A stretch of DNA of 63,815 bases, the filler included, from Octopus bimaculoides (lineage: Eukaryota), in assembly GCF_001194135.2 (NCBI RefSeq). It is 8 parts of 8 records of this genome, joined end to end, with 100 filler letters (N's around TTAATTAATTAA, not from the genome) between each part and the next. Parts side by side here need not be neighbours in the genome. Positions count along the whole stretch, not along the records: positions 39,022 to 43,539 come from NC_068986.1; positions 43,640 to 52,225 come from NC_068983.1; positions 52,326 to 60,341 come from NW_026387102.1; positions 60,442 to 62,651 come from NW_026307308.1; 4 more parts are not named here. The stretch is one strand, 5' to 3'. Positions 39,340-62,094 of this stretch are shown in pieces. Every line of letters starts with the position of its first letter. Position 1 is the first letter of the stretch. The notes under the pieces were generated by a model, which saw only the letters and a list, made by a program, of their open reading frames with translations, did not search any database and was not told where the DNA came from. The position numbers and the translations under genes are program-made.

Positions 39340-39514
39340 TTTTTAAGCCTCGTACTTATTCCATCGTTTACCTTTTGCCGAAGCCCTAAGTTACGCGGAC
39401 ATAGACACACCAACACCGGTTATCAAGCGTGATGAGGGAGAAACACAAACAGAAGGATACACAACCACGCAGTGGGACTGACCCAGAACCATGTGGTTGG
39501 GAAGCAAGCTTCTT
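39340..39514 (-). mobile_element. SINE family A (3' part), interrupted; the 5' end of its head is at 41495-41530
   Basis: CCACGCAGTGGGACTGA..CCATGTGGTTGGGAAGCAAGCTTCTT resumes at 41495 as GGAAGTAAGCTTCTTAGCACACAGCCACGCCTGC. Confidence 0.8.
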
Positions 39515-41494
39515 TATTTCATTTTATTGGCCATGACGGCTTTACATAGAAGAAAAGGAAAAAAAAGAAAGAAGCAGCGGGCTGGACAAAGACATAATGG
39601 TATGTGTAATGAAAGTGATAATAATGAATAAATGGGGAGAAAAAAGCAACGCCTGCCGATTGCTTGATCCTCGAAAACATTGTTCTCATATATGAGGCAA
39701 CAAGCTTCTTACAAATGTTCATACTGTTCATGATATCTATCACTGAAGCATTTTCGCCTTTCATACATAACCCTCCTCATCACTTGTGTGTCCGATTCCC
39801 ATCAACACCCACGCCCTCTCTAGGCACACCTCGAGTGGCGTGTCGGCGTCGCCAGGCACCACGTTAAACTGTTCTCTGAAGTCATATAGCTCCTGTACTG
39901 GGTCCCACATTAAGGCCTCCACAGCTATCTGCGGAGGCCATTCGGGATCCCGTATGCAGGCCATGGTTGCTCCCTTAGGATATTTTTTTAACTCCATTTC
40001 TATCTCGGCCCCCCCCCTCCTCTGTAGAAGAAGACCAACGATTCTTCTTCCTCCGGTAAAGAGATAGACTTTTCCACCGTCGGCGGTACAATTCCCACCG
40101 GCGGTGGTTCAACATCCGTTGACACCTTTTCTTTCCTTTCTTTTTTTTTCCGGTGGGAGACTCCTCCGGTTTACCCGGGGGACTCAATCCCTCTTCCAGC
40201 TGTACATTTGTTTGAGGTTTCGGCGGGCTGCTATTAATNNNNNNNNNNNNNNNNNNNNNNNNNNNNNNNNNNNNNNNNNNNNNNNNNNNNNNNNNNNNNN
40301 NNNNNNNNNNNNNNNNNNNNNNNNNNNNNNNNNNNNNNNNNNNNNNNNNNNNNNNNNNNNNNNNNNNNNNNNNNNNNNNNNNNNNNNNNNNNNNNNNNNN
40401 NNNNNNNNNNNNNNNNNNNNNNNNNNNNNNNNNNNNNNNNNNNNNNNNNNNNNNNNNNNNNNNNNNNNNNNNNNNNNNNNNNNNNNNNNNNNNNNNNNNN
40501 NNNNNNNNNNNNNNNNNNNNNNNNNNNNNNNNNNNNNNNNNNNNNNNNNNNNNNNNNNNNNNNNNNNNNNNNNNNNNNNNNNNNNNNNNNNNNNNNNNNN
40601 NNNNNNNNNNNNNNNNNNNNNNNNNNNNNNNNNNNNNNNNNNNNNNNNNNNNNNNNNNNNNNNNNNNNNNNNNNNNNNNNNNNNNNNNNNNNNNNNNNNN
40701 NNNNNNNNNNNNNNNNNNNNNTCCAAACAGCAACCATATAGTTGCATATTTGGAACCACTGGCGATATCGTCAGCATGTACTCCGCAAACTCCTTTTCTA
40801 TTTCTAGCCTAGGAAAGGGGACAATGGAATCCAAGGACTTTGAATAAGTCCTTAGAACCACCGTCCTCCTTTCCAAATCTGTCACCCATTCTTTGGGTGG
40901 ATTGATTTCCCACACCAAAGCAGTGTTATATTTTCTATTGTTCATATTTTAACTGCAAATAAAAAAAAGAACACAGTTCAACAGTTCAAACAAACAATTT
41001 TCCTGCTACTAGGTACTCCAGGCTACATAAACACGGAATCCTACAACTGGAACGGCTTCCACAATTTTTCAAAAAAATTGGTAATAATGTTCAATTTCTT
41101 GGAGGCGAGATACGCCCCCAACACAACAATTTTCACAAAAACTATTCACTAAACGTGAACAAATTGCTTATGCATAATTTCACAAATAGTTCAACCACTT
41201 CTCGAGTCGATATACACCACCAGAAAGGAAGGTACAACACAAGCCTACTACGCAAGCCTCAATACACAAAAAACAGTGGCCACCAAGAGCAGGTAAAATT
41301 GTCCCAGAGCTGTGAGCAATTTATTAACAAAAAATATATTATAATAAATTACTCCCAACTCAGAAAAAAAAACAAAATCACCTACCTCGCCGACCGTTCT
41401 ATGTTTTTGTTGTTCTTTTTTCTTTTGGGATGGAGCGCAACTGGCTCACATCCACCTTGGTCTGCTGCACGAAGAAGACTAACTCTCCAATATC
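39515..41494 (-). mobile_element. ~2-kb non-LTR-type insertion (candidate ORF1-only, L1/Tx1-like) with 15-bp TSD
   Basis: TSD GGAAG(C/T)AAGCTTCTT at 39500-39514 and 41495-41509; 3' end CTATGTAAAGCCGTCATGGCCAATAAAATGAAATA; one long degraded ORF; no RT motif in the sequenced part. Confidence 0.7.
39761..40945 (-). pseudogene. ORF1/gag-like protein of the insertion (~390 codons including a ~500-nt N gap; at least two frameshifts at homopolymer runs)
   Basis: MNNRKYNTALVWEINPPKEWVTDLERRTVVLRTYSKSLDSIVPFPRLEIEKEFAEYMLTISPVVPNMQLYGCCL...gap...P/K/E-rich INSSPPKPQTNVQLEEGLSPPGKPEESPTGKKKKGKK...MELKKYPKGATMACIRDPEWPPQIAVEALMWDPVQELYDFREQFNVVPGDADTPLEVCLERAWVLMGIGHTSDEEGYV*; ORF1 identity is inferred from context. 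Confidence 0.5.
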
Positions 41495-41874
41495 GGAAGT
41501 AAGCTTCTTAGCACACAGCCACGCCTGCACCTTACAAATCCCTGGCTTTATTTTGTAATTAATGAATCGCTTGCAGTAGACTACGCCTGCACATTTGACG
41601 AAGTAGAGCTCCAATATTGAAACCAATCTGAACCATTGTTATACCAATTCTGCCACTGAGTCCCTGATTGCTTACGACAGGCATACCCCACTAAGATGTT
41701 TTAGTGAGTCTACATGAACTATAGACACAAAATACTGCATGGTGTTTGTCAGGGCAATCTCACCGACACCGAAGTTCACAATTCCGTAATATCGCCAAGT
41801 GCCCACATTTTCATATGCGCCGCCCAACTGCGTATTTCTGGCCACAATGACAGAATGGCACATGAGTTAGAAAA

Positions 41875-42107
41875 TATTGGGGTTGTCCGGAAAGTTCGTA
41901 CCGATTTTTAAAGGAAAGAAAAAAGTCAATAAATAGTTGCCATTACATTTTTAATCAACCAAATATGAACCATTTTGTTGCACAATGCGTCTCCACCTTT
42001 CCTTTAACTTGAAAATACCCTCTTCCCCGAATTGAGGTGGTTTCAAGGCAAATAAGTTGAAAGGTAAGCTACTATAAATCGGCACGAACTTTCCAGACAA
42101 CCCAATA
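41875..42107 (-). mobile_element. Internally deleted mariner (MITE-like) with TA TSD
   Basis: TIRs TATTGGGGTTGTCCGGAAAGTTCGTACCGATTT / AAATCGGCACGAACTTTCCAGACAACCCAATA; residual C-terminus GIFKLKERWRRIVQQNGSYLVD. Confidence 0.9.
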
Positions 42108-43013
42108 CCTTTCCAACTATGAGTTAGCTGGAGCAGGGGGGACGTTTGAGAAGTATAGTTACAAAGTCTAGTTAAAAGACACCAGCATAAATCCAGAGTC
42201 ATGTAATAGCTTTGCAGTCGAGAGAAATAGCTGCCGAAATTTCTTATGGAAATATCCCAGNNNNNNNNNNNNNNNNNNNNNNNNNNNNNNNNNNNNNNNN
42301 NNNNNNNNNNNNNNNNNNNNNNNNNNNNNNNNNNNNNNNNNNNNNNNNNNNNNNNNNNNNNNNNNNNNNNNNNNNNNNNNNNNNNNNNNNNNNNNNNNNN
42401 NNNNNNNNNNNNNNNNNNNNNNNNNNNNNNNNNNNNNNNNNNNNNNNNNNNNNNNNNNNNNNNNNNNNNNNNNNNNNNNNNNNNNNNNNNNNNNNNNNNN
42501 NNNNNNNNNNNNNNNNNNNNNNNNNNNNNNNNNNNNNNNNNNNNNNNNNNNNNNNNNNNNNNNNNNNNNNNNNNNNNNNNNNNNNNNNNNNNNNNNNNNN
42601 NNNNNNNNNNNNNNNNNNNNNNNNNNNNNNNNNNNNNNNNNNNNNNNNNNNNNNNNNNNNNNNNNNNNNNNNNNNNNNNNNNNNNNNNNNNNNNNNNNNN
42701 NNNNNNNNNNNNNNNNNNNNNNNNNNNNNNNNNNNNNNNNNNNNNNATATATGCACACACATACACCAATGACAATAACAGTAGCAGAAACAGTATCACG
42801 ATCATCACGTCGGACAACGTAATGACTATTAACAGCAACAACAATAACAACCACAACAACAACAACAACAATAACAATAATAACAATAATTATAATAATA
42901 ACAATAATAAGTATATTTGCCACAAGGTCAACAGACAGGAGATTAGAAGAGCAGAATTAGAGAATAATAATTTCTTTTGCTATTGAGATTCCTTTGTCTC
43001 TGCTTTAAAAGCC

Positions 43014-43050
<37 letters not shown>

Positions 43051-43435
43051 GCACGCACAATCACGCACACAGAAATGTATATATTGTTGCTACTAGAGAT
43101 TGAATTGTTTGTGCGAATATATGGTATTTATCATATGTATTTTTGTATAGTTTCGGTTCATATTCTAGCTGTCTTTTGTAGCCATTTACTTACTTTTTCC
43201 AGAGACTTTCGATATAGGTCACTACTGACAGCTGATCAATTTATAAATTCCACTAATGTCGACATCTCATCCTAATACAAATTAGATTTAAAACTCAGTG
43301 TTTAAGCGAATATGACAACAAATGATTTACTGCTGCTGCTACTGCTGGCGGTGGTGGTGGTTGTTGTTGTGTGCAATTATATACATATATGCGTACGTGT
43401 GTGCGTGCGTCTATGTATGTGTGTATAAGTGTATG

Positions 43436-43466
<31 letters not shown>

Positions 43467-43755
43467 CATATACACACACGCATATATATATAAATATATA
43501 TAAATTAAATTTTCCTCATATATATATATATATATATATNNNNNNNNNNNNNNNNNNNNNNNNNNNNNNNNNNNNNNNNNNNNTTAATTAATTAANNNNN
43601 NNNNNNNNNNNNNNNNNNNNNNNNNNNNNNNNNNNNNNNACACTAGCACACTAGCACACTAGCACACTAGCACACACACGCACACTAGCACACACAAATA
43701 CATATATACATATATATATAGTGAGAATTTACAAATAAAAAAAACAAATCACGAA

Positions 43756-43804
<49 letters not shown>

Positions 43805-43805
<1 letters not shown>

Positions 43806-44025
43806 GGTGTCTGTGGACTGTTTGTACCCTACCAACACTTGACAACGGGTGGTTGTGTGTTTAGATCCCCCTGACCTACAGGTTCGGGATAAGAAACCGA
43901 TAGATTAAGTAGAAGGCTTCAAAATATAAGTCCTAGGGTCTATTTGTTCGAGTAAAACCCTTGAAGATGGTGCCCCAGAATGGTCGCAATCAAATGACTG
44001 AGACAAGTTGAAGATAAAAGATAAC
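43805..44025 (+). mobile_element. SINE family A, 3' half, diverged
   Basis: ACACTTGACAAC..AATAAGTCCTAGGG..GGTGCCCCAGAATGGTCGCAATCAAATGACTGAGAC. Confidence 0.7.
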
Positions 44026-44639
44026 AGATGTATATATAAAGTGTGCAGTAAGCCTCTGTTTGTATGACATTAAATCTATTATAACGTATCCATCAAAATT
44101 TTGCACAGCCCTGGCCGCGCCTCAGGATTATACAATGTTTATTATTTCAACATCATGTGCGAAAGTATAAAGTTTATGGGACCTGTTAATTTAATTCTAC
44201 ATAAAATTGGCCATTAGGAAAACAGTATTCCTCAAGATTCAGTCCACATTTGTCCTTAGGATTTATTGATTCATATGCCAAAGCATTGATATTCTGGGAA
44301 TTGACGATATATATCTGGAAAAGGAACATCTGTTGCTATTCGTAGAATTCTCAGTATAAATGTACGCCTTGTTAGCTGCATTCAGTCACAATAATACTAT
44401 GGATGACGTGTAAGATAGGCTTTTTCCTCATTGAACAAATACCAGCAAACAAATACTACAATGATTGTCTTTCAGGAAAACAATGAAAATCGATTTTTTA
44501 AAATTTATCTAAGAGAATGAAAACTTGTACTTTCTATTGAAAGGCGAGTTTGTAGAAAGAAGTATGTCAAGCTAACTTTCAACCGGCACACTGTGCACGC
44601 TTTGACTTCGTTATTTGTTATTTCTTATCTGGTATAACA

Positions 44640-44990
44640 GTAACTCGACTGGGTGCATCTAAGAGGTTTCCCTTCGGGATACAAGTCTGGGCGGAAAGTC
44701 GCCTCACCGGCGAACTGACAATCTAAAGTTATTTTTGTGAAAGTTCAGCAGTTGCCCATGGATACCAGACTCCCCTCTCCACGACCCCAAAGTTATCCAA
44801 GGGAAAAGCAAGGACCGATACGGCTTGACACCAGTAAAGTCGCAGCTCATTTCTACAGCTGAGTGAACTGGAGCAACGTGAAATAAAGTGTCTTGTTCAA
44901 GAACACAATACGCAGCCCGGTCCAGGAATCGAACTCACAACGTCAAGATCGTAAGCTCGACACTCTAACCAATGTGCCATGCGTCTTCAT
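44640..44990 (-). mobile_element. SINE family C with long 3' tail
   Basis: Reverse complement of the 29094 head and CORE-like block at 44845-44985. Confidence 0.75.
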
Positions 44991-45160
44991 AGTATGACAT
45001 TACTCTACGTAGTTTAAAAGTTTGGGAAAGGGGACCATATTAATATTGATGAAAATTTGTGTAAACGTTGTGCTTCTTAGATTTTGTGCTTACTGTGATG
45101 TAGTTGATTGCGTAAAGTAAATCAGTGGAATATTTTCCAAATTGTCTACTGACTGTTAAA

Positions 45161-45646
45161 CTTAGGGTTAGCGTTAGAGTTAGGGTTAGGGTTAAGGTTA
45201 GGGTTAGGGATAGGGCTAGGGTTAGGGTTAGTCTTATGGTTAGTGTTTGGGTTAGGGTTAGGGTTAAGGTTAGGGTTAGGGTTAGGGTTAGGGTTAGGGT
45301 TAGGGTTAGTGTTAGGGTCAGGGTTAGGGTTAGGGTTAGGGTTAGGGTTAGGGTTTGGGTTAGGGTTAGGTTTAGTGTTAGGTTTAGGTTTAGGGTTAGG
45401 GTTACTGTTATGTTTAGGGTGAGGGTTAGAGTTAGAGTTAGTGTTGGGGTTATTGTTAGAGTTAGGGTTAGGGTTAGGTTTAGGTTTAGGGTTAGGGTTA
45501 GGGTTAGGGTTAGTGTTAGCTTTAGTGTGAGGGCGAGGGTGAGTATTAGATTTAGGGTTAGGGTTAGGGTTAGTCTTAGTGTTAGGGTTAGGGTTAGGGT
45601 TAGTCTTAATGTTAGGGTTAGGGTTAGGATGAGGGTTAGGGTTAGT
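45161..45646 (+). repeat. Degenerate interstitial telomere-type array (TTAGGG)n, ~80 units
   Basis: TTAGGG with variants TTAGTG, TTAGAG, TTAAGG, TGAGGG, TTTAGG. Confidence 0.9.
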
Positions 45647-45832
45647 GTAATTTTAAATGTAGAGAAGAGGAAAAGTGAAACAAAGCTTCTTCGCTGTGTA
45701 TTAATTGTCCTTGCTTGACATTTCAGCATACGGTTTCTCTCATAGTAGATGTTTTATTATGTCAGGGAAAATATCTCAACGTTATAAGATGATATATTTG
45801 TAGAATATTTTACAAATTTATTGAATAGAAGT

Positions 45833-45952
45833 AATCGAACTCAATAACTCTGTAGAAATCGAACTCAATAACTCTGTAGAAATCGAACTCAATAACTCTG
45901 TAGAAATCGAACTCAATAACTCTGTAGAAATCGAACTCAATAACTCTGTAGA
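45833..45952. repeat. Five perfect tandem copies of a 24-bp unit
   Basis: AATCGAACTCAATAACTCTGTAGA at 45833, 45857, 45881, 45905, 45929; no spacers. Confidence 0.95.
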
Positions 45953-46614
45953 AAACTATCTATCTGCTGCTAGTTTTTTGCTGCCCAACCAATGATTTGT
46001 AACCACCGTTCTTGAATATATGACAAGTATCCGTGTTCATATAACTTGTTCTTCACAAATGGTGCAGATATTTGTTGTACAGTTATTATATCATACGTAA
46101 GAGTTTTCTTATTGAAAGTATCCTAGTAACGATTAGCGGTATGCGTTTTAACAATATTTAAGAGCTCTGGTCTCGTGGATGGGTCTGGGCGCTCTGGAAA
46201 ATGGATGGAAATAATTTGATAGAAATAAATATTATTTGTAAAACAGATCGAAACGTATGTGTGTGTCAAATCCTCTTTTTTCTTGTCTCTGGTAATGGAA
46301 ATTCGTTTGACCAAGAAATACATTTGGTCATAAGTGAGTTTTAACCTATTCTTTATTTGGTTAAATGACAGTCTGTTGTTATATCATAATCAGCCGCAAT
46401 TCTACAATAACTACGTCTACTGCTGAACATTTCATATATGCTGAGAATTATTGTGGAAGAGAGAAAGGTAAAATGAAGTAGAAAGTAAAAGAATCGTTGA
46501 TAGTATTAGAGCAATGATTTAAAAGAATGAAGGTTTCTGAAAGTTCGCGCTCGCGAGTGATTGAGAGGGGGTAGGAGAGAGAGAGAGAGCGAGAGAGAGT
46601 GAGTGAGAATGTGG

Positions 46615-46655
<41 letters not shown>

Positions 46656-47287
46656 AGGGGAAAAAGTGGTCATAAATAAAGAGAATGGTTGAGAAATGTA
46701 AAGATTTTAACGGAAGCAGGCAGTGGGGCTGGATAATAATATTTATACCCTCCATCAGTGTAGAGTGAACAGATATCAACAAAAGTTACATAACAAAAGA
46801 AAAGGGGAAAGATAAGATGGATATGCGCACAGACGAACTTTCTTCAATAAATAATAGATTTATATATTCTAACCAATGCTGTGTATATAGGAAAGTGTAA
46901 TTGCTTTCTTGAAAAAAATGGCAGTATTAGCTCGACAACATTTAATCTTGTTTTAGTATTTCATGAGCAACCGATTAACTTCTGTTACTGTCAACAGAAT
47001 ACTGAGAACTATTACAAATTATGGCTGCGTTAAATGGGCGATTTTTCTATGCTCTCCTCTATTATATACTAATTTTTGTTAAGAATTTTAGAATCAGTGC
47101 ATGTATTCATGTTTTGTTATGTATAATATGTTTGAGTTCAGTAAATGCTAATTACACATAATGGTTTCACCTCTGTATTGAAATTCCATCAGCGATCGAG
47201 TAAATTCTTAATTGCACACGGACCTCGAAGTTTCGACCAGCTAAGCCATCATCGAACAGTCCAGTGTTGACTTATATAAGTGTGTGT

Positions 47288-47355
<68 letters not shown>

Positions 47356-47394
47356 ACATACACATGTATGAAGGTATGTGTCTATCTATCTATC

Positions 47395-47426
<32 letters not shown>

Positions 47427-47438
47427 TGTATGTATGTA

Positions 47439-47811
47439 TCTATCACCGCGATCGTGAAGGGGCTCAGTCCGCTGCCTCCCGCCGAGTCTCCCTCGACGCC
47501 GACGAACGCGCCGGTGGCAGCCTTTCCTTCCGAGGGCGGTCGCCTGCCGTCTCGTCGGCGATCGATTTCCGGGGCGCTGGAATCGGACGCACTTCCCCTC
47601 CGATCTGTCGTCGCGACCCGCTCCCATCGGGCTGGCAGGCGCGTGGCGTCCGTAGGTCACAGATAAACGCCTGGCCGCCGTCGGCTTCGCGGCCGGCCGG
47701 CCGGCTTTCGATCCTGGGAGCTTCTCTCGACCGGTCCGTCGATCCACAAAAGCGCAGGTACGGCTATCCGACGGAGACGGGCTAACGCACCTCGCCCTCA
47801 GCAAGTACTGG
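47439..47811. other. Isolated very GC/CpG-rich island of unknown origin
   Basis: Abrupt change from (TATG)n to roughly two-thirds GC (estimated by eye) and back to AT-rich DNA. Confidence 0.8.
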
Positions 47812-49534
47812 TATATATGTAAAGAAATGTTTTTTAAACAATTACGAGTTTTTGAAATTTAGGTACATTTTCAACAACACATTTCCCTATATGTATATGT
47901 ATATCTTTATCAGTCCGATGCCTATTTTATCAATTTCTCGTGCTGAGCCGTCAAGGTGTGGGTATGTATACAAACTGCACCTGTTGTCGAACGCCGAGAG
48001 GAAAAAATACCAGCACAAAGGCAAATGCACTCAGACAGGCACACACGCACACACACAAACACGCACCAACATACACACTCACTCACTCGCACATACATAT
48101 CCATACGCATGTACACGCACACACACATATATAGGTTTTGTAAACGAATTTCACTCTCGAGGCATTAATGACCCGAAGCTTTGGTAGAAAGCATTTGTTG
48201 ACTGTGCCACGTAGTGGGATCGAGTTCAAATCCACGTGGTTGTAATGTGTGCTTCTTAATCACGGAGATACGTGTGTGCATATATGTATATTGATAATAT
48301 TCCATGTGTCTTTGCAAAAATATATCTATATCCGTGTATCTTTGTCTGTTTGTTAGTGTGTGTGTATGAGTGATATTTCAGGAAAAATTGAAACTGCTGA
48401 AACGGAATTTAAATTTTTAAACAGAATATATCAGGCTCAGAAAAGTATTTATCTATATTTTATTGTGGCTTGTGTCTTTTAAAACATTTGGAATCTCAAT
48501 ACAATCAGGTTTTACTTACTTTATATTTCGGACGATGAAATTAAAGAATGCAATGCGACGAAAGACATACATACACGTAATTGGGCATATACATTTCATG
48601 CAAAACTTGGTTTATGTCTCTACTATAGTAATCAATTAGTTTTTACATTTGGGTACGATCTACAAAAAGACCTATGAACGGTTAACCTTATTATCTTGAT
48701 ATAGTAACTTTCATGTATTTTTCAGAAACTTCATTTCTTGAATTAAAGCGAAAACCGCAAGTTGATTTTTACGTTGTCAAATATTTCCCCGACAATTTAC
48801 AGTATGTTCTAATGTATGGGTGCATAAATAACTGTCGATGTATTTTTTTTTTTTTACCTCTCACGTATCCAATGTAATAATTAGAACCATAATGTGAATA
48901 GTTTTCGTGTTCGAAAGTTATATATTTCAATTATATTTCCATATAACAATCGTCATTTCAAATGTATTCAAATGTTTAGCACATAATGACCTTTATAAAA
49001 GGATGACTATCTTTTATGTGACATTTTAAAAAAGAATTCGGAAATAATTTGTTTCGTTTATTATTATATACACAAGTTGATGATTATGGCTAATGCATTT
49101 ATCTTAAAGTTAAATTAGCCTTCATAATATATTACCATTCTAAGAAAATTAAATTCGTGAAGAGTGTACAATGATTGTTTTAAAGATTTTGTGGTTGTGG
49201 TGTTTATGCTGTGTGGTATTGATAACGAATGAAATGTTATAATAAAATGAAATTTAAAATTATTTGTAGACAGCAAAGTCTACAATTACGCAATTAAAAG
49301 AAAAATCAATTGAAACAGATAATTTGAAGAAGAATAAATAAAAAATAACATAAAGCAAATAAAGTAATTAGGCAAAATCGAATAAAAAATGCGTGACATT
49401 TAGTACAATAGTTAAACAACAATGAAATACAGTCACCAATTCTATGATATCATTTTCATATTAACATTGCAAAAATGAAATATACACAGACATGCAGAAA
49501 GTAAATAGACACCTTTAATTTTCAAAATCTTTTA

Positions 49535-49870
49535 TTTGATATTAATTGGTTGAACGAGAGGATTTCTTCTAGCTACTCGTCCATAATACCGAAGCTTATG
49601 CAGATATGTAATACACGTTCTTTGGCTGACTTCTAGCTGTTTTGAAATGTCTGAAGCCTTCGAACGGGGGTTCGTTTTCTACAATTCTCTTCAAACAGCA
49701 AAGCTTCCTTTCCGAGGGCCCAGGTCGGCNNNNNNNNNNTCTATTAACAGTAGCAAGAGGAATTTGAAGTCCAGCCGCAGATTGCCCAACAATACGACCT
49801 TTTTGAAAATCTGAAAGTTCTGCTGATATTTTTTGTGCGTGGCATGGTTACTCTTCGCAAATGTTTAATA
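49535..49870 (-). pseudogene. Decayed Tc1-family transposase, N-terminal part
   Basis: ELSDFQKGRIVGQSAAG... and KTNPRSKASDISKQLEVSQRTCITYLHKLRYYGRVARRNPLVQPINIK (Tc1 GRxARKKP motif). Confidence 0.8.
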
Positions 49871-50323
49871 TAATGGCAGCTGAAATGAAAAAGAATAATT
49901 ACATTGTAAATTCTACACCGCTGAAAACATATTTAGACGCTTAGATCAGAAATTTTGAAAAGTAAAGATGCCTATTTACTTCCTGCATGTCTGTGTATAT
50001 ACGATATCTTATTGCCATGAATCAGATTCTGTATTAACAGCAAACGGAAGTGATTGGTGGGCTTTTATTCCCGGTGTCTACGATTTCCCATTGATATCGT
50101 AAAAAAACATAACTGTCTTAATACTCCATTTGTTTTAAACTCCTCTTATTTCTTTATTCTCATTATATAATGCTTTGAGAGCAATTTATCTCACGTTAAT
50201 CAAAACAGAATGGATGATAAAAAGTATTATATTTACATTATAGTCCACAGGAACATGAAATTGATAGTCAGTGTTTGTATAGAGTATTTGTATAGAGAAT
50301 TTTGTTGAAATCATTTTGGTCAG

Positions 50324-50449: not shown

Positions 50450-52193
50450 GTATGTTAGGCCTTCTACTCAGAAGGTATTGACAGCAAATGGAACAATTAC
50501 ACAATGAAACATGTTTCTCTACCACAGAAAGTAGAAGAGAAAACGCTCTAGTCCCGTCAAATGTGAACGGGCCATAGTCCAACAGTCAGTTGGTAATATA
50601 GACGGAGGGAATCTAAAACTTCACCACTTCTTCTTTACATTCAAGACATACCTTCCCAGGTAGTGTGATTACATTAGTAAATATATGGTAGTGAATTTCC
50701 TTTCTTTCTACTGATCTTCAAGCATACATTTAAACATGAGAACTCGTTCATCTGCAAAGGATTGCGGAATTGTCAAGTTTAAACTGAATCAAAGAAATCA
50801 ATTTCATATGTCTTTCATCTAAAATCTGCACATACTGAATTATCTTTGAAAGGGAATACTTAGTGTTTATAAATCTGATACTATGCAACTTCTCTCCCAA
50901 AACAGTAAATGCGTGACAGACACTCTTAAAATCAATTATATTTTAAGGTCTGAAAATGGTAGTTTGGAAAAAATTTCATTTATTAATGAATTGACAGATT
51001 GTTTGCATCTTTACATGTACGAACCAATGTGTATAGTGATGAAATACATTCTCAAGACGTTCGATATTTTATTTTTGTCTGACCGCTATTATATTTTGAG
51101 ATATATGCAACAACCGATTAACTGGTGAATCCTCTGGTTTTATGACTTGTATGGAATGTCCTGTCGACATACTGTTTATGATTTACGCTTTTACTCACTC
51201 GACAATCCGCCTGGTGACTGAGGTATTCTCATGAACTAATTGAAGTATCCTCATGGATTAATTCCTATTTTCTGTCAAGTATACATATATTTCTTATCAT
51301 TTATTGGTTACATTTTTCATTCGTTGAACTGCAGTTATGCTGCTGCATCGCTTGAACGGTTTAGTTGACGAAATAGATCTCAGTACATTTTTTTTCTAGA
51401 ATTCATACACATTATTTCTCTATCTTTTGCCAAATAGCTAGGTTAAAGTGACGTAAACAAAGCAACACAGGTTTTCAAGCAGTGGTGGAAAAACTAAAAG
51501 ACAGTGAAACCCCCACACACGTGCGTACACTCACACGGTCGCACACATATGCATGCATACGACGGGCCTGCACACGGTGCCACAAAGTGAGACTGGACTC
51601 GAAATCCTATGACTACAAAGCAACATCGTAATCACACAGGCATGATTTGATTAGTAAACATAACGAACTTTTGTTTTGCTACCCACACTTATACAGTAAA
51701 GTACTTTTAGGGTTTCCAAACAAAATCTTAGAAGTTCTGAAAACCTGGATACAAAGAGATAAATGCAATACTTTAGTTAGTTACTAATGATTATATTTTC
51801 CACATACATACATTTTAATATTATCAGAAATGCTGATACACACATTCTAATATTTTATCAGAAATACTCTCCTGTCCAACCTGTATTTGAGTTAATTAGC
51901 TCGACAATTAGGTCACATTTTACAGATTCTTTTTTCTCACTTCTTATCTACCCAATAAATAGCATCATAACGACTTCATTTCTATTTAAGATTTTATCTT
52001 ATCAGCCAATTCTATATTCTAAGTCTATATATCTCAAATCTAACGTAATTTAATTTATCACTTCCTTTGGATATGTTTTATGGAATAGAATTCTATCTAC
52101 CAACTGTGAACCAGAAATTCTCAAATATTCTTGAGAATATTTGTCAAATTTTTTACATCATGTCTTCTACACATTCTTCTTTGTAACAGACAG

Positions 52194-52225
<32 letters not shown>

Positions 52226-52589
52226 NNNNNNNNNNNNNNNNNNNNNNNNNNNNNNNNNNNNNNNNNNNNTTAATTAATTAANNNNNNNNNNNNNNNNNNN
52301 NNNNNNNNNNNNNNNNNNNNNNNNNTTAAGGCATCAAAGATTCCCGAGACGCTAAAACTGTTAACGGTTTCTTTTAAGTAAGGAAATTTGGTTGGTAGTG
52401 AATTGTAACACAGTGAACCTTTTCAAAATTGTCATGAGGCCAATAAAATGAAGGAAAGCTGTTCAGCCCACAATATATACAACTTCCAGTGGAATCGAAC
52501 ATCATAATTAATCTTAAACTTGTTGTACTTAAACACTTTCTCATTAGGATAAGCACAATGTACAACATAAATTTGCTGATACACACACA

Positions 52590-53220
52590 CGCACACACGA
52601 TACACACACACACGTCCATTTCATATAGACGTACATACATCTGTTACTTTCTTTCTCTGTTCTTTTCGCTTATCTTCAATCAACTACCGTAAAAATTTTA
52701 TACTATTACGTCACATTCTCCAAAGAATAAATGAACTTAATCCTGCATACGATGCTCTACAATATCCATTACTTTTCCCTTTTGGCGACGATGGATACCG
52801 CATTGACTTACCAAAGTGTAATCCAACAACTTTAATGAATCTTCAACCATTGAAAGCTATTTCCTAAATGGAATTTTATACATCTAGAAACGCGCGCGCG
52901 AGAGAGTTAGAAAAGTGCGCGCGTGCGATTGTGAGAGAGAGAAACAGAATAAAAAAGAGAGAGTGAATGAGTGAAAGAAGTATGTACGTCTATATGAAAT
53001 GGACGTGTGTGTGTTTGTGTTTGTGTGTTTGTACGCGCGCGTGTGTATGTGACAGAGAAAGAAGGTGAGAAAGAGAGATAGTGAGTGAGTGAAGGTACAC
53101 ACACACATTTAGAAAATGTGACGTAATAGTATAAGATAAACGAAAAGAACAGAGAAAGAAAGTAATAGATGTATGTACGTCTATATGAAATGGACGTGTG
53201 TGTGTGTATTTGTGTGCGTG
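52590..53220. repeat. Fold-back with ~110-bp inverted arms plus a third internal copy of a 28-bp motif
   Basis: CACGTCCATTTCATATAGACGTACATAC at ~52613 is inverted at ~52980 and ~53170; TATACTATTACGTCACATT at ~52700 is inverted at ~53115. Confidence 0.8.
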
Positions 53221-53435
53221 CTTATGTGCTGGTTGTCTTAGCAACTGATTGATTTTAATGGCGGAACAAACAGATTACAAAAATAGCGATTCTCACCTTG
53301 AAATTAACTATTTTGAAAATGTTTTTAGATTACGGAACGCCCAGCTCTGTCATGTATCCATGTTTAAAATTTCAGTGCGATCAGGTGAACAATATTACAG
53401 TTATAAGTTCATAAACAGACAGACAGAACGGATTT

Positions 53436-53502
<67 letters not shown>

Positions 53503-53772
53503 AGAGAGGGAGGNNNNNNNNNNAATAGGAGTTTTTGTCAACTGACATTATATTGCCGGTATATACTATGAATGCTCAGTTTGGTTTACCCCTAAAACTC
53601 CAGCTTGGACTGCAATTGAAAAATGTACTGTTAAGACTGCCAATCGAAGGTGGCCAGAAGTGGTTTCTCTTTGAGCGGGTGGATGTTAATTGCAAGAGAA
53701 AATGTAAAAGCAAAAAATTTGACATCACTCGAAAACATTTAATTTAGGTAGAGAATATAAAAAAAGTTTTTA

Positions 53773-54234
53773 CACCTGTTTCTAGGATAGCCAAACATGT
53801 GGATCATAATATTGAATAAAGATTCCATAAGCTAGGTAAACCGTCATCGGTGAGGGAGAAGTCAGAAAAAAATATAAACGAAGGATTACCCCCCAATCAA
53901 GGATATTAGTACTCTCTAGTTTGTCAAAGGAAGAATCAGAGTGGAATAGATATGAATTATACAGATTCATGATTGGATAAGAAATAAAGCTGGAGGTAAA
54001 GTCCATTAGCAGTTTCAAATGAGAATGTTTGATGGGTCTACGTAACGCATATCAATTTCGCTCTGATCTTTCCTTCACTTTTGACAAAGTGGAGAGAATT
54101 GATATCCCTGATTGGTGATATTCTTTCATTTTTATATTTTTCTGACTTCTTCGCCTCCGATGACGGAAAACCTAGCTTATGGGATCTTTACTCTTTATCA
54201 TGATCCACATGCTTGGTTATTCTAGAAACAGATG
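53773..54234. mobile_element. 462-bp palindromic MITE (~185-bp imperfect arms), TA TSD
   Basis: TA|CACCTGTTTCTAGGATAGCCAAACATGTGGATCAT ... ATGATCCACATGCTTGGTTATTCTAGAAACAGATG|TA; arms continue inward (ATAAGCTAGG..CCGTCATCGG / CCGATGACGG..CCTAGCTTAT). Confidence 0.8.
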
Positions 54235-55365
54235 TAAGTGACTCTATCTGTTTGTATTCTCTGTCTAAATTAAATGTTTTCGAATGATGCCAGATGTTTC
54301 GCTTTTTCATTTTTTTATTTTCATCTATCTATCTATCTACATGCATATATATGTACACACATACGCACGCGCACGCACGCACGACGCGCGCGCGCACGCA
54401 CACGCACGCACGACGCGCGCGCGCACGCACACACAAAGTCAAAGACCCAGAGTGTGCATGTTGGGCGGGTGCCCGGAGGATTGTAGCTTCTGCCACTGGC
54501 GATGTCTTGTATTCCGACTGTTTAGATATGGCAAACCGAAACAAGTACAAATAATTAAGCGTGAATTTTCACAATAATTCTTTCGGCTGATAAACGGTTG
54601 ATAGACATTATAGATTCTGAGAGAACACATTCCTGTATCCAATTTCGAAGCTTTACCATTAGCTCGAAATCTAGACAAAGGCATCCAGACTGATAAATAG
54701 ATAAACAACAAAACACACGAACCAGTGAGTTGCAGACGTTCGAAGGTGAAAAAAAAAAAGAGAAAAAAAACAATGAAGAATCGGAAGCTTTAAGTCAGCA
54801 CGTGCGATGTTTGTTTAGGGTAAGGTTAAATTGATTGTTATTTTTAGAAACTTTGGCATTCGCAGAAAATAGCATGCTTCACTTTTTTAATTTTTTTTAT
54901 CTGAGCTGTAGATGATACACGCACGCATGCACACGCGCATGCACGCACACACATATGTGTGTGTGTGTGTATGTATGTGTGTGTGTGTATATGTGTGTGT
55001 GTATCTATAGTGGGCACTAAGTGTGTACGTGTGTTTCTTTTGACATGGATATGGTGAGATCTTGTGACTAAACAGTGTATTGAAAAACGTGTTTCTGAGA
55101 TAAGATACAGGTAAATGTCGCTTACATCGATACAGAAGGTGATTTTGGTGCCAAAGACGACTAAAAAATACTTTAACCCCAAACATTTAGTTTTCTGTTA
55201 TAATCCCCGTAGAACAACACAGCAAATCTCCTATTTATACATTGATAGAAATGGGGTGTGTGTATGAAGTGGGAGTAGGTAGGGTGATGGTATCCTACTT
55301 TTCAACTCCCGAAACTGGCTAATAGTTTATGTCTTTTCTCACCTTCCCAACACCAGCCTTCAAGG

Positions 55366-55435
55366 CAGGGGTCTCCAAAGTGGTCGATATCGACCCCTGG
55401 GGGGTCGATGGGACCATTCAAGGGATCGATAAATG
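55366..55435 (+). mobile_element. hAT-type MITE left terminus (fragment)
   Basis: CAGGGGTCTCCAAAGTGGTCGATATCGACCCCTGGGGGGTCGAT resembles CAG(G/T)GGT-starting hAT termini; no partner end identified. Confidence 0.5.
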
Positions 55436-55547
55436 CACATCTACTTAATCATTATTATTATTTATCTATTTTCTTGTACAGCCTGGTGGTCAAGGATTCC
55501 ATGAAGAGCTTTCTACACGAGAACAAATTAGTTGCAGGTTTTTCACT

Positions 55548-56453
55548 ATGACTTCTGCATATCCCAGTGCAAATGGAATTAATCACCGCGACATTGCCAT
55601 CGCCACCGCAACAACAGCAGATAGTATTCACTGGCTCAAGACATACGGATTGTTAAATACTAAAAAAATATGTCCCTCTTGTGGAGCTAGCATGAGGGAA
55701 GTAGCCAAAAACAATTTGTCAGATGGCATGATATGGTCATGTGGAAGGCCTTGTAGAAAAATGATTTCCATTAGAAAGGGAACATTTCTAGATAATAGCA
55801 AATTGAAATGCGAGCAAATTATAGATATATTATATTATTGGGCAAAGGGAGATTTAGCTAAGAATTTAGGCCAGGAATGTCGTATAGCAAATGTAGCTGT
55901 AACAGATTGGAGGAATTACTGCCGTGATGTATGTGCAGAGTATTATATTGCGCAAAATATTAAGTTAGGCGGACCAAACCGAATAGTGGAGATAGATGAA
56001 AGTGCGTTTGTTAGAAGAAAATATAATGTTGGCCATCGTGTTAAAACGCAGTGGGTGTTTGGTGCTTTAGAAAGCGATACGAGAAGATGTTTTTTGGTGA
56101 CGGTGGAAGATCGGTCATCAGATACCCTTTTAGAAATTATACAAGATCGGATATTACCAGGAACAACAATAATTTCTGACCTCTGGCGTTCATATAATAC
56201 ACTAAACACGCTAGGATATAGACATTTAACCGTGAACCATTCAATAAATTTTGTTGATCCGGTTACATTTGCCACAACAAATCACATCGAAAGCCTATGG
56301 AAACACGCCAAGAACAGGAACAAAAGAGAAAATGGGACAACCCGGAATTCACCGCAAACACATCTAATAGAATTCATGTGACGTTATGAATTCAAGGACG
56401 AGATCTTCCAGAAGTTATTGGAACAAATTCGACACCTATATCCATGCGTTTGA
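55548..56453 (+). mobile_element. Merlin-superfamily (IS1595/ISXO2-like) DDE transposase; 277-aa ORF plus 23 in-frame codons beyond an internal TGA
   Basis: Zn-ribbon CPSC...WSCGRPC; VEIDES, RKYNVG, IISDLWRSY, VNHSINFVDP, TNHIESLW motifs; C-terminal EFM*RYEFKDEIFQKLLEQIRHLYP matches the EFxWR...LLxxI..YP pattern. Confidence 0.9.
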
Positions 56454-56837
56454 AACATTACAGAGTATAAGTATCTACAACTTCAAACTTCATTTGTTTT
56501 CTATTTTGATAAATTCTCTCTGTTGAAAATTATATTTTTATATTTTAAATAATTTGCAATTTCAGGAAATATGTTTTTATATTAAATCTGTGTTTTCTAA
56601 TAAGGTGGACGAGTGATTGATAGATAGATAGATAGATAGTAGATAGATATCAGTAAGTAAGTAAGCCAAAGTATCAACTCAAACCAGCAGGCAGACAGAC
56701 AGACGGACACACAGATAGCTCAGCAGGCAAGCAGGCAGACAGGCCAGCAACAGGCATGCAGGCAGACAGACAGATACTTCACTAGCAGTGAGCACTTTCA
56801 CTTCTGACAGCTAATAGCATGATAGTGCCCAAAATAG

Positions 56838-56927
56838 ATAAGTATACGAAGTTTGAAAGTCTTTCGGTACCAAAAACACTACGTAAAACGTTAATGAAAA
56901 ATGTGGCCCCCGTTTTAAAAAAGATCC
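56838..56927 (+). mobile_element. Right terminus of the Merlin element
   Basis: Ends AAAGATCC like the MITE at 58609; CGAAGTTTGAAAGTCTTTCGGTACCAAAAACACTAC matches (1 mismatch) the reverse complement of the MITE's left subterminal block. Confidence 0.75.
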
Positions 56928-57225
56928 GAGGTATTTGTTCCGAATTTCTTTGCTCCAGGTCCAGATCCATCAAGGTTAACTTGGTCTTTCTTTCTTTCTT
57001 TCTTTCGAGGTCTATAAATAAAATATTGAGTCTTCCTCTTCCTCTCACTCTCTTGTCTCCGGTTAGGTGTGACGTGGGATGGGCTCTGCTATGTCTAAAA
57101 ATGTCCAAAACACACCACCTATCACCACGGCGTTCCTACGACTCCATCAAAAGTAAAGGACCCTGAGAAGGAAGGATAACTGTCTATCATCCAATATCAT
57201 AGCTAATAATTACCAAAAATCTGTA

Positions 57226-57286
57226 ACACTGCCAAGAACCTCGCTATAGACGTCAGAGACGTTTATATTGAGGCTCTTGGCAATGT
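57226..57286. other. 61-nt near-perfect hairpin (26 of 29 pairs including G:U)
   Basis: ACACTGCCAAGAACCTCGCTATAGACGTC-AGA-GACGTTTATATTGAGGCTCTTGGCAATGT. Confidence 0.8.
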
Positions 57287-57899
57287 CTTTGGTTCCGAGG
57301 TTTATGAAATTATAAATCTTAGAGACTATTTAACTACACCAACCTCCTACAACACACTGTTATCTATTATCTTTACCAATACGTTCTACAGGAATGAGAA
57401 CACTGTGAGAAGTGTACTTTTAGTGAAGGTTGTAGATTTATTTCTAAATTGTTTGTAACGGAAGATACTTTCGAATAAGAAAGAAGAAATTCAGAGTTGT
57501 AGGAAACCGAGATGAAAAAAACACAACTTTTTGTTGCTAAACAAAATGAAACCGCAGCTGTCTGATTAGGCTAAAGATTTGCAGATAACCATTACTATCC
57601 ATGTCTCCGACTGTGAATAAATGAATTTGAAGGACAACACAATGAAGGCAATAATTCGATTTTTTAAAAATCAGACTTTAGACATTATTCAGCAGTGAAT
57701 ATGAAGCTTCGTGGCCACATTCGCATTAAAAAACGGAACTCCGGTTTAATCTCCGTCGTCTTTTCTTATAATGAGCCAGTGGAAAGGAGATATGTCTGCG
57801 TTTGTATGACCTGCTAGAAATAGCAGTCAAATCTCTTTCACTTCATACACACACTGCCTTCTTGGGAAAGGACTGGAAGTGGCACACTGGATAACGTTG

Positions 57900-58609
57900 G
57901 GATCTTTGGGGTTTGACGGGCAACATTTTTTTTGTAGTGTTTTTGGTACCGAAACACTTTCAAACTTCGAATATTTGTATATTTTGTGGTATAGAACAGA
58001 TAAAAAATTTTGTATTCGAAGTTATTTTATGTAAAAAAATTGTCGTATTTCGGTAATTTCAACCAATCACTGACGTCTATTGAGGTGAAAACAATTAATG
58101 CCGTAACGGTGTCATGGGATCTTTTCCCTTGAATAAAATTAGTCCCGTTGTTTGTCAACAACAACTACCCGTGTTACTATATTATTTATGACATCGTTCG
58201 TGCGTTTGTACTGGTTTTAGCTTTAGGGTTTTAGGGTGAGGGTTCGGGTTTTAGAGTTAGGGTTAGTTTTAGGATTACGGTTAGGGTTATGATTATTTTT
58301 GCCATAGCCTTAACCCTATAACTCATAACCCCAACCCTAAAACCTTACTAGGGAATAATGATATAATTAAACAGGGAATAACACACTTGACACCGAACAG
58401 CAGTAACTGTATTCAGCTGAATAGACGTCAGTGATTGGTTGAAATTACAGAAATACGACAACTTTAACATGAAATAACTTGCGATGTACAATTTTTTGTT
58501 AAGAAGGTTAAGAGAAGAAGTTGTTTTATATGACACATTCTACCAGTGTCCCAAGTTTGAAAGTGTTTCGTTAAGAAAACAAATGTTGCCCGTCAAACCC
58601 CAAAGATCC
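57900..58609. mobile_element. 710-bp non-autonomous Merlin MITE
   Basis: TIRs GGATCTTTGGGGTTTGACGGGCAACATTT / AAATGTTGCCCGTCAAACCCCAAAGATCC; perfect 8-bp TSD TAACGTTG (57892-57899, 58610-58617); GG...CC ends and an 8-bp TSD fit Merlin. Confidence 0.9.
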
Positions 58610-58675
58610 TAACGTTGTCTTTATACATAATGCCTGAAATAAAGAAAAAATAAAAAGGCAAGATGGTCACAGATA

Positions 58676-58840
58676 GAATGAACTGCTGCAGGAATGAGTG
58701 AAGAATGAATTGTTTACGATCGGAAGTTGGCAGTCGAGGGTTTGTAGGTGGTGTGCTGAGTCAGGCCTATAGAACTCTGGGCATTACAGGAATGAGCCCT
58801 CAAGGACAACGTAGAGGCTGCTGAGAAAGCATATTAAATG
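58676..58840 (+). mobile_element. C-terminal RLE region of a Hero/NeSL-like non-LTR retrotransposon (decayed)
   Basis: EVGSRGFVGGVLSQAYRTLGITG...DNVEAAEKA resembles the (V/I)EVGCRGF...LGI.G...AAEKAS restriction-like endonuclease C-terminus. Confidence 0.65.
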
Positions 58841-59945
58841 GCACTTAATGTAAAAATGGACAGCAGTAGGGGTCAGTAGAATGTCCTTGAAGGTTGATCA
58901 ACTTTAATCAGGTCACCTGGATGAGAGTATAATGTCGTAAGGTCAGAAACATCTAATGACCTTAAGATACAAACAACATTAACAGTGTGTTCTAGTGTTG
59001 CATCTGTAGAGTGTATGGTCAAGACAACATAATTTTGCAGTTGAAACTGAGTAGACTTCCATATTTTTAAAAGAACCTGGAGCAGGTGATAATAATTCTT
59101 GAGAAAATAATTTGCAGAAACAGAAGTTTATTTAAATATTCGTGGAAGATGTTCTACATTTGCAAAATATATTTTGGTCATGCAGGAAAAATGATATTTT
59201 AATTAGTTTTATTGGTAACCCAAACCAGTTTTTCTAACAAAAGAACTGAAGAATAAATAACTCAAATGGTAGACGATGAAAAAGAAATGTAGAGAAGAGA
59301 ATAGAAGGCATCTGTAAGGAATTAGGAATGCTGATATACCAATTTCTCCAACTCGGTTCAATTGACAAAAAAAGAAGTCAAGCACAAAAAGAAAGGAATT
59401 GCGAATAAGCCTGAATGCTGATAGATACTGAAGTGGTTAATTCCTTTCTACTAATTTTGTAATCTAATTAGTTTATTTTCATGGTAAGATACAAGGCACA
59501 AATGCCAACCATTTTTGGTGGTAATAAGCTGCAAATTCGAAGTAGAACTTCTAATATTCATATAAATGTTCACTCTTAATAGAGATACAGTGGAGGGGGA
59601 GATAACTCATAGCTTTCCCTGGTCTTACAGACAGATGAAATATATGCAGTTTATTATGTTCAATTTAATCTGTAGATGTACAAAGAACTCTAGAGCAGGG
59701 TTCTCAAATTCGGTTGCTTTTCAGTGCTGCAAACGAGTGCCAATCTGATGCTGGCCTGTAGCTTACTGGGTTGTTGCATGAATTGTTAAAAATAAAAATG
59801 AATATAAAAAAATCTTGCAAACCAAATCCAAAAACGAAATAAAAAAGGAGAGTTCGCTGGAAATGAAAATATATATATCAAAACAACTTCGAAATAGAAA
59901 AAAAATTATCAGAAACTATGAAACATTTTAATATAAACAAAAAAA

Positions 59946-60135
59946 GGCGGCGAGCTAGTATTATCGTTAGCACGCCGGACAAAATGCTTAGCGGCATTTC
60001 GTCCGTCTTGACGTTCTGGGTTCAAATCTGGCTGAGGTCAATTTTACCTTTCATCATGACGGGGTCGATAAAATAAGTACCAGTTGAAAACTAGGGTCGT
60101 AATCGACTTTCCCTTCCTTCGAAATTGCTGGACTT
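59946..60135 (+). mobile_element. SINE family B with intact 5' end, tail variant 2
   Basis: GGCGGCGAGCT..TCGTTAGCACGCCGG..AATGCTTAGCGGCATTTCGTC; empty-site reference for the nested copies. Confidence 0.8.
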
Positions 60136-60441
60136 GAAACCAATATAAACGAAGCAAATGTTCAAACAGTTATTAGGGGAAATTGGCATCAGGGCCAGTA
60201 TAATTATTGGATCTTCATTAAGATATAGAAACAATGGAAAATACTTTATTATTTTCTATAGACTATAAAAGCCAAACACTATCACTGAACCCAAATAAAG
60301 GCTTAAATTATACTGGACAAATAAATATATATATATATATANNNNNNNNNNNNNNNNNNNNNNNNNNNNNNNNNNNNNNNNNNNNTTAATTAATTAANNN
60401 NNNNNNNNNNNNNNNNNNNNNNNNNNNNNNNNNNNNNNNNN

Positions 60442-61165
60442 AAGTGACAAAGGAGCATATTTGGCATATTTTGCTTTATGACTTCAATAAACGTAACAAG
60501 GCAACGGAAGTGCAAGGAATATTAATGCAGTATAGGGTGATCGGACAATAAGCGTAAGCTAGTGTCAATGGTGGCTCCAGAAATTCCGATCAGGAAACTA
60601 TAGCCTAGAAGACGAACCTCGTCCAGGAAGATCTGTAAAGCCTGATGAGGACGTCCGCCAAAAACTGGTGGAACAAATTCCCATCGTAACTGTTGAGGAA
60701 CTAGCAGAAAAGCTTGGATTTGTTCATTCAACCATTCATCAACACCTGCATGCCATCGGAAAGACGACCATCTGTGGTTTCATGATGAAAGGTGCTCGTC
60801 CATCAGGATAATGCTCAATCACATTCGGTGAGGTTGACATTCCAAAGACTGGAGTAATTTGAATGAGAAATGATGCCCAACCCCATCTTCGCCTGACATT
60901 GCCCATCTGATTATCATTTATTCAAAATCATTCGTACGGAAAAAAATATGAATTCTATAGACGACGTCAGAAGAGTACTGGAGGAGATTTTCTCGTTAAC
61001 GACAAGTAGATTTTGGACGAGGGACCTTGCAAGTCTACCAAATAGATGGAAGAACATAGCAGAAAATGAAGGAGTGTATATTTGAGATTAAAAAAGAACT
61101 TTGTTAATCTTAATTTTGAAAAATAAAAGTACAAAATTACCGCATTATTTATGGGATGATCCAGT
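60442..61165 (+). pseudogene. Internally deleted, decayed mariner transposon
   Basis: KEHIWHILLYDFNK...WLQKFRSGNYSLEDEPRPGRS...VTVEELAEKLGFVHSTIHQHLHAIGK; PSSPDIA.SDYHLF (YSPDLAPSDYHLF); right TIR-like CGCATTATTTATGGGATGATCCAGT. Confidence 0.9.
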
Positions 61166-61569
61166 CTATGTGTATGCCTTTCACCCACCGACTTTCACCT
61201 CAATATTATTACAATTCCGTTTCTCTCTCTTGTCCTTCTATTCATCTGTCTTTCTACCTACCTGTCCAACTCTGTCTGTCTTTNNNNNNNNNNNNNNNNN
61301 NNNNNNNNNNNNNNNNNNNNNNNNNNNNNNNNNNNNNNNNNNNNNNNNNNNNNNNNNNNNNNNNNNNNNNNNNNNNNNNNNNNNNNNNNNNNNNNNNNNN
61401 TGCACTATATAAAATGACACCAATATTACTAGTGTTAAGGGAAGATACTCATAAATATAATGCGTTTTTATTGAGAGTTATCTCCCTTGAAGATTGACAA
61501 TGCCAGCTATTGTACTTTCGATGTGGAATTAACTTCTGAATGGAGGCTACTCTCGAAGTATATAATTCC

Positions 61570-61784
61570 TTTACTTTCCTTTACTTGTTTCAGTCATTTG
61601 ACTGCGGCCATGCTGGAGCACCGCCTTTAGTCGAATCAAATCCACCCCAGGACTTATTCTTTTGTAAGCCTAGTACTTGTTCTATCGCACACTTTTTGCC
61701 GAACCGCTAGATTACGGGGACCAAAACACACCAGCATCGGTTGTCAAGCGATGTTGGGAGGACAAACACAGATACACAACATTT

Positions 61785-61815
<31 letters not shown>

Positions 61816-62094
61816 CATATATACGACGGTTTTTTTTTTCAGTTTCCGTCTCCCAAATCCACTCAGAAGGCCTTGGTCCGCCCGAGGCTATAGTAGAAGA
61901 CACTTGTCCAAGGTGCCACGCAGTGGAAATGAACCCGGAACCATGTGGTTTGTAAGCAAGCTACTTTATTTCATTAGATTGGCCATTTAGGCCTTACAGA
62001 GAGGGGACGAACAAGGACAGACAAACGTAAAGTAGCTGCCGACTGGACACGGACATTAATGAGATGAGGATGATTACCACACAGCCACTCCTGC
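61570..62094 (-). mobile_element. SINE family A, full length, head interrupted by a 107-bp insertion
   Basis: AAGCAAGCTACTT[insert]TTACCACACAGCCACTCCTGC. Confidence 0.9.
61967..62073 (-). mobile_element. 5'-truncated retro-insertion (3' tail only) in a SINE head
   Basis: Minus strand ends GTTTGTCTGTCCTTGTTCGTCCCCTCTCTGTAAGGCCTAAATGGCCAATCTAATGAAATA; only TT is duplicated. Confidence 0.8.

Follow-up and report, generated by a model that had tools for sequence, protein, structure and literature searches.

What places two insertions at one and the same position of a repeated element, on different contigs of one genome? The question is raised by a stretch of 63,815 nucleotides of Octopus bimaculoides DNA (assembly GCF_001194135.2; henceforth the window), in which two copies of a tRNA-like short interspersed element (SINE) are each interrupted in the head by an insert. 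A first reading of the window, made from the sequence alone (henceforth the sequence-only reading), had placed both inserts at a single position of the SINE head and in the SINE's orientation. We confirmed this: both lie on the minus strand (C6:28540780-28542759 for insert 1 and C12451:1526-1632 for insert 2), and both 3' junctions fall on the same base, immediately after the GGT that closes an A-box-like segment. We conclude that the inserts are retroposons that carry the first open reading frame (ORF1) only, and that such elements were, in all likelihood, copied into this one SINE base by the endonuclease and reverse transcriptase (RT) of relatives that use the same site and that belong to the L1 group, probably to the Tx1 clade, of long interspersed elements (LINEs).

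The insertion site in the window and across the genome

The duplications described for the two inserts are both present: that of insert 1 consists of two 15-mers agreeing at 14 of 15 bases, and that of insert 2 is 2 bases long, one of which could derive from the element. The tails, which had been called related, are 69% identical along a 95-base stretch (E 3e-5 for a comparison inside the window). Two further claims stood in part. The junction is shared in position and not in sequence, host 1 being an AAGAAG variant of the SINE and host 2 an AAGTAG variant, and the two empty heads cited for comparison both hold the unbroken site, with the full-length one deviating at three bases from the head that had been quoted. 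The A box had been named as the target; the site is indeed at the edge of the A-box-like segment, and the nick would fall just 3' of it, between the A and B boxes, at a position that maps to the end of the D-loop. A tail-like motif at window position 52438 was dismissed, having neither upstream homology nor a SINE flank.

The same site recurs in the genome. With five DNA queries made of element sequence only, devoid of flank, we fetched the 30 best-scoring loci each (150 in total, which is not a census) and left out the 5 queries themselves and 7 loci whose 3' end was gapped, deleted or at a contig end. Among the 138 assessable copies, which come from five related families, 127 (92%) end at the same SINE base and in the same orientation, compared to 7 of 4,000 random window positions (0.18%) in the same test. 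The SINE peak that the sequence-only reading had expected in genome-wide 3' flanks is thus present and strong. By family, the counts are 26/28 for the insert 1 family, 27/29 for the insert 2 family, 27/27 for a third family, and 24/26 and 23/28 for two families bearing a second reading frame (ORF2).

Random insertion, with SINE flanks dominating through their abundance or survival, could appeal to how common this SINE is: an exact 28-base pattern finds 24,632 empty sites in the genome and 326 filled ones, an occupancy of ~1.3% among well-preserved SINE copies. The single-base precision obtained with flank-free queries refutes this account, whose probability we regard as negligible, and related L1/Tx1-like families chosen by protein domain do not have the site. 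Indeed, none of 30 L1/Tx1-like loci chosen by zf-RVT alone ends there (several are gapped at the 3' end), and these loci have a related tail but other flanks.

Other L1/Tx1-like families (L126-L155) show the same tail motif next to different flanks. The same non-SINE repeat follows both L143 and L149, which suggests another fixed target.

The insertions carry marks of separate events. In the fetched DNA, 28 of 144 distinct 3' junctions could be paired with an upstream SINE 5' half, 109 to 2,307 bases away, and 72 interrupted 5' halves were listed. Most of the paired junctions have a matching duplication, of 2-16 bases in truncated copies and ~15-16 bases in full-length ones, while two (L205 and L212) have no convincing one. 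At L045, a duplicated 16-mer shows copy-specific changes on both sides. L218 is a stack that reads, in order, SINE half, 15-mer, ORF1-only element, 15-mer, ORF2-bearing element, 15-mer and the rest of the SINE; insertion restores the site each time, and elements can therefore stack. Could one or a few insert-bearing SINEs instead have been amplified as composites, with the inserts as hitchhikers? The near-constant 15-mer at both ends of full-length copies might be read in this way, but the 5' ends range from 53 bases to more than 2 kb with separate duplications, insertion parts the SINE's A box from its B box, and the hosts span two SINE variants with five distinct families, ORF2-bearing ones among them, at the site. 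Because of the varied 5' truncations with their own duplications, the changes at L045 and the stack at L218, we treat composite amplification as excluded; it is largely refuted and very improbable.

The SINE head resembles tRNA (compared with shuffles, z is ~5 for genes of tRNA-Lys and tRNA-Thr, a likeness that is not specific), and A- and B-box-like segments can be recognised in it by eye; ARAGORN and Rfam call no tRNA there. The target 15-mer is absent from 16 tRNA genes (4 amino acids) sampled from a genome search in which 63 candidates were scored. The tail of the SINE, which we take to be RTE-like, differs from that of the inserts, and the SINE was therefore likely moved by a different LINE.

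A second SINE family is present in the window at 37094-37300 and 39022-39260 (plus strand), where an L1/Tx1-type-like tail is followed directly by the family's own sequence, as if it had inserted into itself. Its tail resembles that of the ORF2 family of L128, L134, L146 and L151, and at L101 and L149 copies of it lie in the head of the first SINE, at the site that the inserts use.

ORF1-only inserts and their ORF2-bearing relatives

The sequence-only reading had taken the inserts for an enzyme-coding LINE. Neither is one: both are non-autonomous ORF1-only elements, insert 1 a full-length element and insert 2 a stub of the 3' untranslated region (UTR). The window copy of the insert 1 ORF1 is frameshifted and spanned by a gap of N's, and because other copies span this gap with ~500 bases, no ORF2 is hidden in it. 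A gap-free relative, L010, has a single ORF of 405 residues, followed by the 3' UTR and tail. Longer copies of the insert 2 family run on into an ORF1 related to that of insert 1, and a third, distant ORF1-only family of ~1.5 kb occupies the same site. A genome search for ORF1 gave 152 matches (150 scored of 4,874 candidates), and 30 loci were fetched; the junction lies 1.1-1.9 kb past the ORF1 start in 15 of them, and inspection of the others by eye revealed no frame resembling an endonuclease. The junction at L093, followed as a lead to a driver, turned out to belong to the third ORF1-only family. RNA reads from three runs on L010 gave scattered coverage of both strands in the element and heavy coverage on the SINE, and were not used as evidence.

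In a structure prediction, the N-terminal 211 residues of ORF1 form two alpha/beta domains (mean pLDDT 73) whose best Foldseek matches are tandem-RRM proteins (E ~2e-5, at a TM-score of only ~0.26), so that an RRM-RRM arrangement is predicted but unsure at such low TM-scores. A CCHC knuckle follows this region (Pfam zf-CCHC reaches only E 0.17), and ZCCHC3-like clusters turned up as leads in a protein search. RRM domains and a CCHC knuckle are typical of Tx1-type ORF1. The only relative of the insert ORF in the protein database is from Octopus sinensis, at 55% identity. The RefSeq 'uncharacterized protein' LOC115225585 of that species is an ORF1 from this group of elements, 281 residues long. 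Among 20 stop-free ORF1 segments, the ratio of nonsynonymous to synonymous substitution rates (dN/dS) was 0.14-0.21 in 118 pairs with dS > 0.6 and 0.35-0.41 in 22 closer pairs (50 of the 190 pairs were saturated). These ratios indicate that ORF1, as judged from segments chosen to be stop-free, was under purifying selection between subfamilies.

Which elements, then, supply the enzymes? The sequence-only reading had proposed a search for tail-bearing relatives with an apurinic/apyrimidinic endonuclease (APE) and an RT, and ORF2-bearing families were indeed found at the same site. Homology to the ORF2 C-terminus is present at six of the first 30 filled sites. In Pfam, copies at the site score above the cut-off for RVT_1 (E 1e-11) and Exo_endo_phos (E 4e-6) and just below it for zf-RVT; in the PDB, the endonuclease matches human L1 ORF2p best, and the YADD of the RT is intact in L255. 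Read across several broken copies, the order is ORF1 and then an ORF2 with an N-terminal APE endonuclease, an RT and a C-terminal zinc finger, an anatomy by which the drivers are assigned to the L1 group; they probably belong to the Tx1 clade. Two such families use the site: in the older one the matches agree with the query at 76-90%, and in the younger one at 96-98% over the tail. In a tree of the C-terminal region of ORF2 (41 rows, with no named element of Tx1 or L1 among them; eight short entries, 4 loci and 4 proteins, were removed), the 17 rows from copies at the site group as a single branch (support 95/88) within the L1/Tx1-like elements of the genome. Homolog searches gave almost only unnamed proteins. 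We consider the two ORF2-bearing families the likely drivers of the ORF1-only elements.

The 5' ends of full-length copies (L080, L087, L104, L110 and L157-L184) bear recurrent CTTCCGG and GCGCATGCGC motifs right at the end, which we take to resemble ETS and NRF-1 promoter sites.

The shared 3' end and a model of insertion

All families end with a 4-bp hairpin, usually followed by ATGAAATA, and without poly(A). Across 25 distinct tails, 94% of the cells of the hairpin are paired, with 13 double-sided changes that involve 2 of its 4 pairs; 0 of 500 shuffles scored as high, and slid controls gave 12-59%. Drivers and passengers thus appear, from the alignment of their tails, to have a covarying stem-loop in common, as in the 3' ends of stringent-type LINEs, which such stem-loop tails are described to mark (PMC3747384).

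What was observed of the insertion model is the constant 3' junction with its duplications, an anatomy limited to ORF1, the presence of ORF2-bearing families at the site, and this shared tail. The remaining steps draw on established target-primed reverse transcription and on the work on Tx1L and R1 endonucleases reported in PMC1919474. The APE endonuclease would nick the bottom strand right after the A-box-like segment, and the RT would bind the RNA at its end, with the hairpin and ATGAAATA, and prime reverse transcription at the nick. A second nick ~15 bases downstream would yield the 15-16-bp duplications of full-length copies and the 2-16-bp ones of truncated copies. The RNAs of ORF1-only elements would be mobilised in trans by the driver enzymes, these elements having presumably lost the entire ORF2 and kept an ORF1 under purifying selection, likely for packaging their own RNA.

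Precision might also reside in the RNA: transcripts that read into the host SINE could pair through this flank with the nicked target, in which case a loose endonuclease would suffice. Poly(A) is absent at every junction seen, and it is the element-SINE junction that creates an AATAAA, which only 3 of 26 tails hold in their last 40 bases. Five copies of the young ORF2 family that lie off the SINE target begin with AAGTAG, and three off-target copies begin with ATGA, which matches the end of the tail. L088 consists of a SINE half, a 6-base duplication, another SINE head that begins at base 1 and then a full-length ORF1-only element, possibly a co-transcript begun at the host SINE start, and in L090 the element itself carries one more target 15-mer, located behind the true duplication. 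The ORF2-bearing families also match SINE variants, the old one with 23 AAGAAG and 0 AAGTAG sites and the young one with 2 and 21. However, these loci are a handful, the variant matching may be due to age alone (25 of 100 empty sites listed are AAGAAG, against which the excess of the young family is marginal, p ~0.05), and for the endonucleases of Tx1L and R1 an unaided recognition of ~10 bp is reported (PMC1919474). We consider homing driven by the RNA unlikely. A wider proposal, which we put forward only tentatively, is that the SINE has become part of this guild's transcription unit and homing device (a start at SINE base 1, a poly(A) signal across the junction and RNA that pairs with the target), such that the guild tracks the SINE subfamilies from AAGAAG to AAGTAG. 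The SINE may likewise be the 'safe harbour' by which the sequence-only reading had explained the choice of target.

Several observations weigh against our preferred explanation, copying by the enzymes of same-site L1-group drivers. No intact ORF2 was found among 26 long stretches (25 of them checked for ORFs), all being broken or gapped. Between ORF2-bearing and ORF1-only families, the ORF1s show no more than a distant likeness (E 1e-5 to 1e-11), and the data do not assign a given ORF1-only family to the ORF2 family that moved it. Single tails fold weakly (z -0.05 to -2.1), and the hairpin was read from the same sequences used to test it, by which the test leans in its favour. The dN/dS values come from stop-free segments and non-independent pairs, and the specificity counts from the best-scoring 30 loci per query rather than from all copies. 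Of the 138 assessable copies, 11 are off target, although two of these (L018 and L232) resemble decayed on-target sites. Recognition by the endonuclease alone does not obviously explain the five misses that begin with AAGTAG, four of which are without a visible matching 5' duplication; L288, a young-family copy of this kind, has a real 5-base duplication and sits in another SINE.

Table 1. Window coordinates of the two inserts, their host SINEs and two empty SINE copies.
Feature	Position	Strand	Remark
Insert 1, full-length ORF1-only retroposon without long terminal repeats (non-LTR type), ~2 kb	39515..41494	-	Ends common to other full-length copies
N gap of insert 1, 483 bases	40239-40721	-	Part of its 1,980-base span
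Host SINE 5' half for insert 1, tRNA-like head to insertion point, AAGAAG variant	41510..41531	-	
5' copy of insert 1 target-site duplication (15-mer)	41495..41509	-	14/15 bases as in 3' copy
3' copy of insert 1 duplication	39500..39514	-	
5' UTR of insert 1, ~550 bases	40946..41494	-	
ORF1 of insert 1	39761..40945	-	Two predicted RRM, CCHC knuckle, basic linker, C-terminal domain
3' tail of insert 1	39515..39560	-	4-bp hairpin ~39541-39529, terminal ATGAAATA, no poly(A)
Host SINE 3' part for insert 1	39336..39514	-	Starts with 3' duplication copy
Host SINE 5' half for insert 2, AAGTAG variant	62076..62097	-	
2-base duplication, insert 2 5' junction	62074..62075	-	
Insert 2, 5'-truncated 3' UTR stub of second ORF1-only subfamily, 107 bases	61967..62073	-	Hairpin ~61993-61981
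Host SINE 3' part for insert 2	61567..61966	-	Complete through its repeat tail
Empty SINE copy	8862..9013	-	Target site uninterrupted
Empty full-length SINE copy	15063..15470	-	Target site uninterrupted

Elsewhere in the window, a 310-residue open frame at 55449-56381 (plus strand) presumably encodes a DDE transposase of the ISXO2/Merlin kind, which it resembles by eye, and a telomere-like repeat with a 6-base unit, seen through its translations only, forms a long array at 45040-45750.

Known site-specific elements and the octopus case

Tx1-clade LINEs are described within other transposons (Tx1L in Tx1D of Xenopus, Tx1-Mar in Mariner-N4_AMi and Tx1-9_AMi in Harbinger), within long terminal repeat elements (Tx1-8_Crp and Tx1-4_AMi), and at U2 genes and microsatellites (PMC4494074). 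The octopus drivers resemble them as APE-type LINEs of the L1 group that occupy a fixed place in another repeat with a target-site duplication, and the system resembles Tx1-Mar, with its SINEU passenger, in that non-autonomous passengers use the same target; tandem stacks around a duplication are a further common feature. The octopus system differs in its target, a tRNA-like SINE head with 92% of the copies at one base, and in its passengers, which are protein-coding ORF1-only elements and not SINEs headed by small nuclear RNA.

ORF1-only derivatives of mammalian L1, from several lineages, are described as HAL1 (half-L1; PMC5753468). The octopus elements are likewise non-autonomous, restricted to ORF1 and of several lineages; unlike HAL1, they have a predicted RRM-RRM-CCHC ORF1, a 3' hairpin with ATGAAATA and site specificity, and they do not derive from mammalian L1, so they are not members of HAL1. 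HAL1 copies end in poly(A) and are not known to have a fixed target.

Keno, Utopia, NeSL-1_TV, LIN15_SM and LIN25_SM are reported to target U2 or tRNA genes (PMC4640811). They share with the octopus elements a precise 3' junction in a multicopy sequence of small-RNA type and variable 5' junctions, whereas their targets are functional RNA genes, and the endonuclease of Utopia and of the NeSL-related families is of the restriction-like kind. Dada, a DDE DNA transposon, is reported at tRNA nucleotides 8-13, the A box (PMC8869645), which likewise places its target within a tRNA-type promoter region; the octopus elements are retroposons, insert ~10 bases further 3' and do so in a SINE, and are no members of Dada.

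A literature search, with Repbase, Dfam and subscription papers outside its scope, located no report of a SINE as a fixed LINE target or of site-specific ORF1-only passengers. It found no ORF1-only Tx1-like elements in octopus either, and supplementary repeat libraries could hold such families. In the accessible text, PMC13282606 lists L1-Tx1 families of O. vulgaris without the words 'target' or 'nested', and the accessible parts of PMC8967140 and PMC9115989 do not discuss targets. The targeting habit is already known; the SINE as landing pad and the site-specific ORF1-only passengers appear to be the new part.

With this case, SINEs join the list of single-base targets of APE-type LINEs. The dependence has three levels: at its base stands the SINE with tens of thousands of insertion sites, a site-specific LINE exploits these, and several lineages with ORF1 alone depend in turn on the LINE. 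In the annotation of octopus genomes, copies of ORF1 can be mistaken for host genes, the uncharacterized protein of O. sinensis being an example. Two questions become testable on genome data, namely why ORF1-only elements keep a selected ORF1, and how the target of an endonuclease changes when that target evolves fast, as the old and young drivers occupy different SINE variants. Sister families that use different targets within this genome offer a natural series in which specificity can be mapped.

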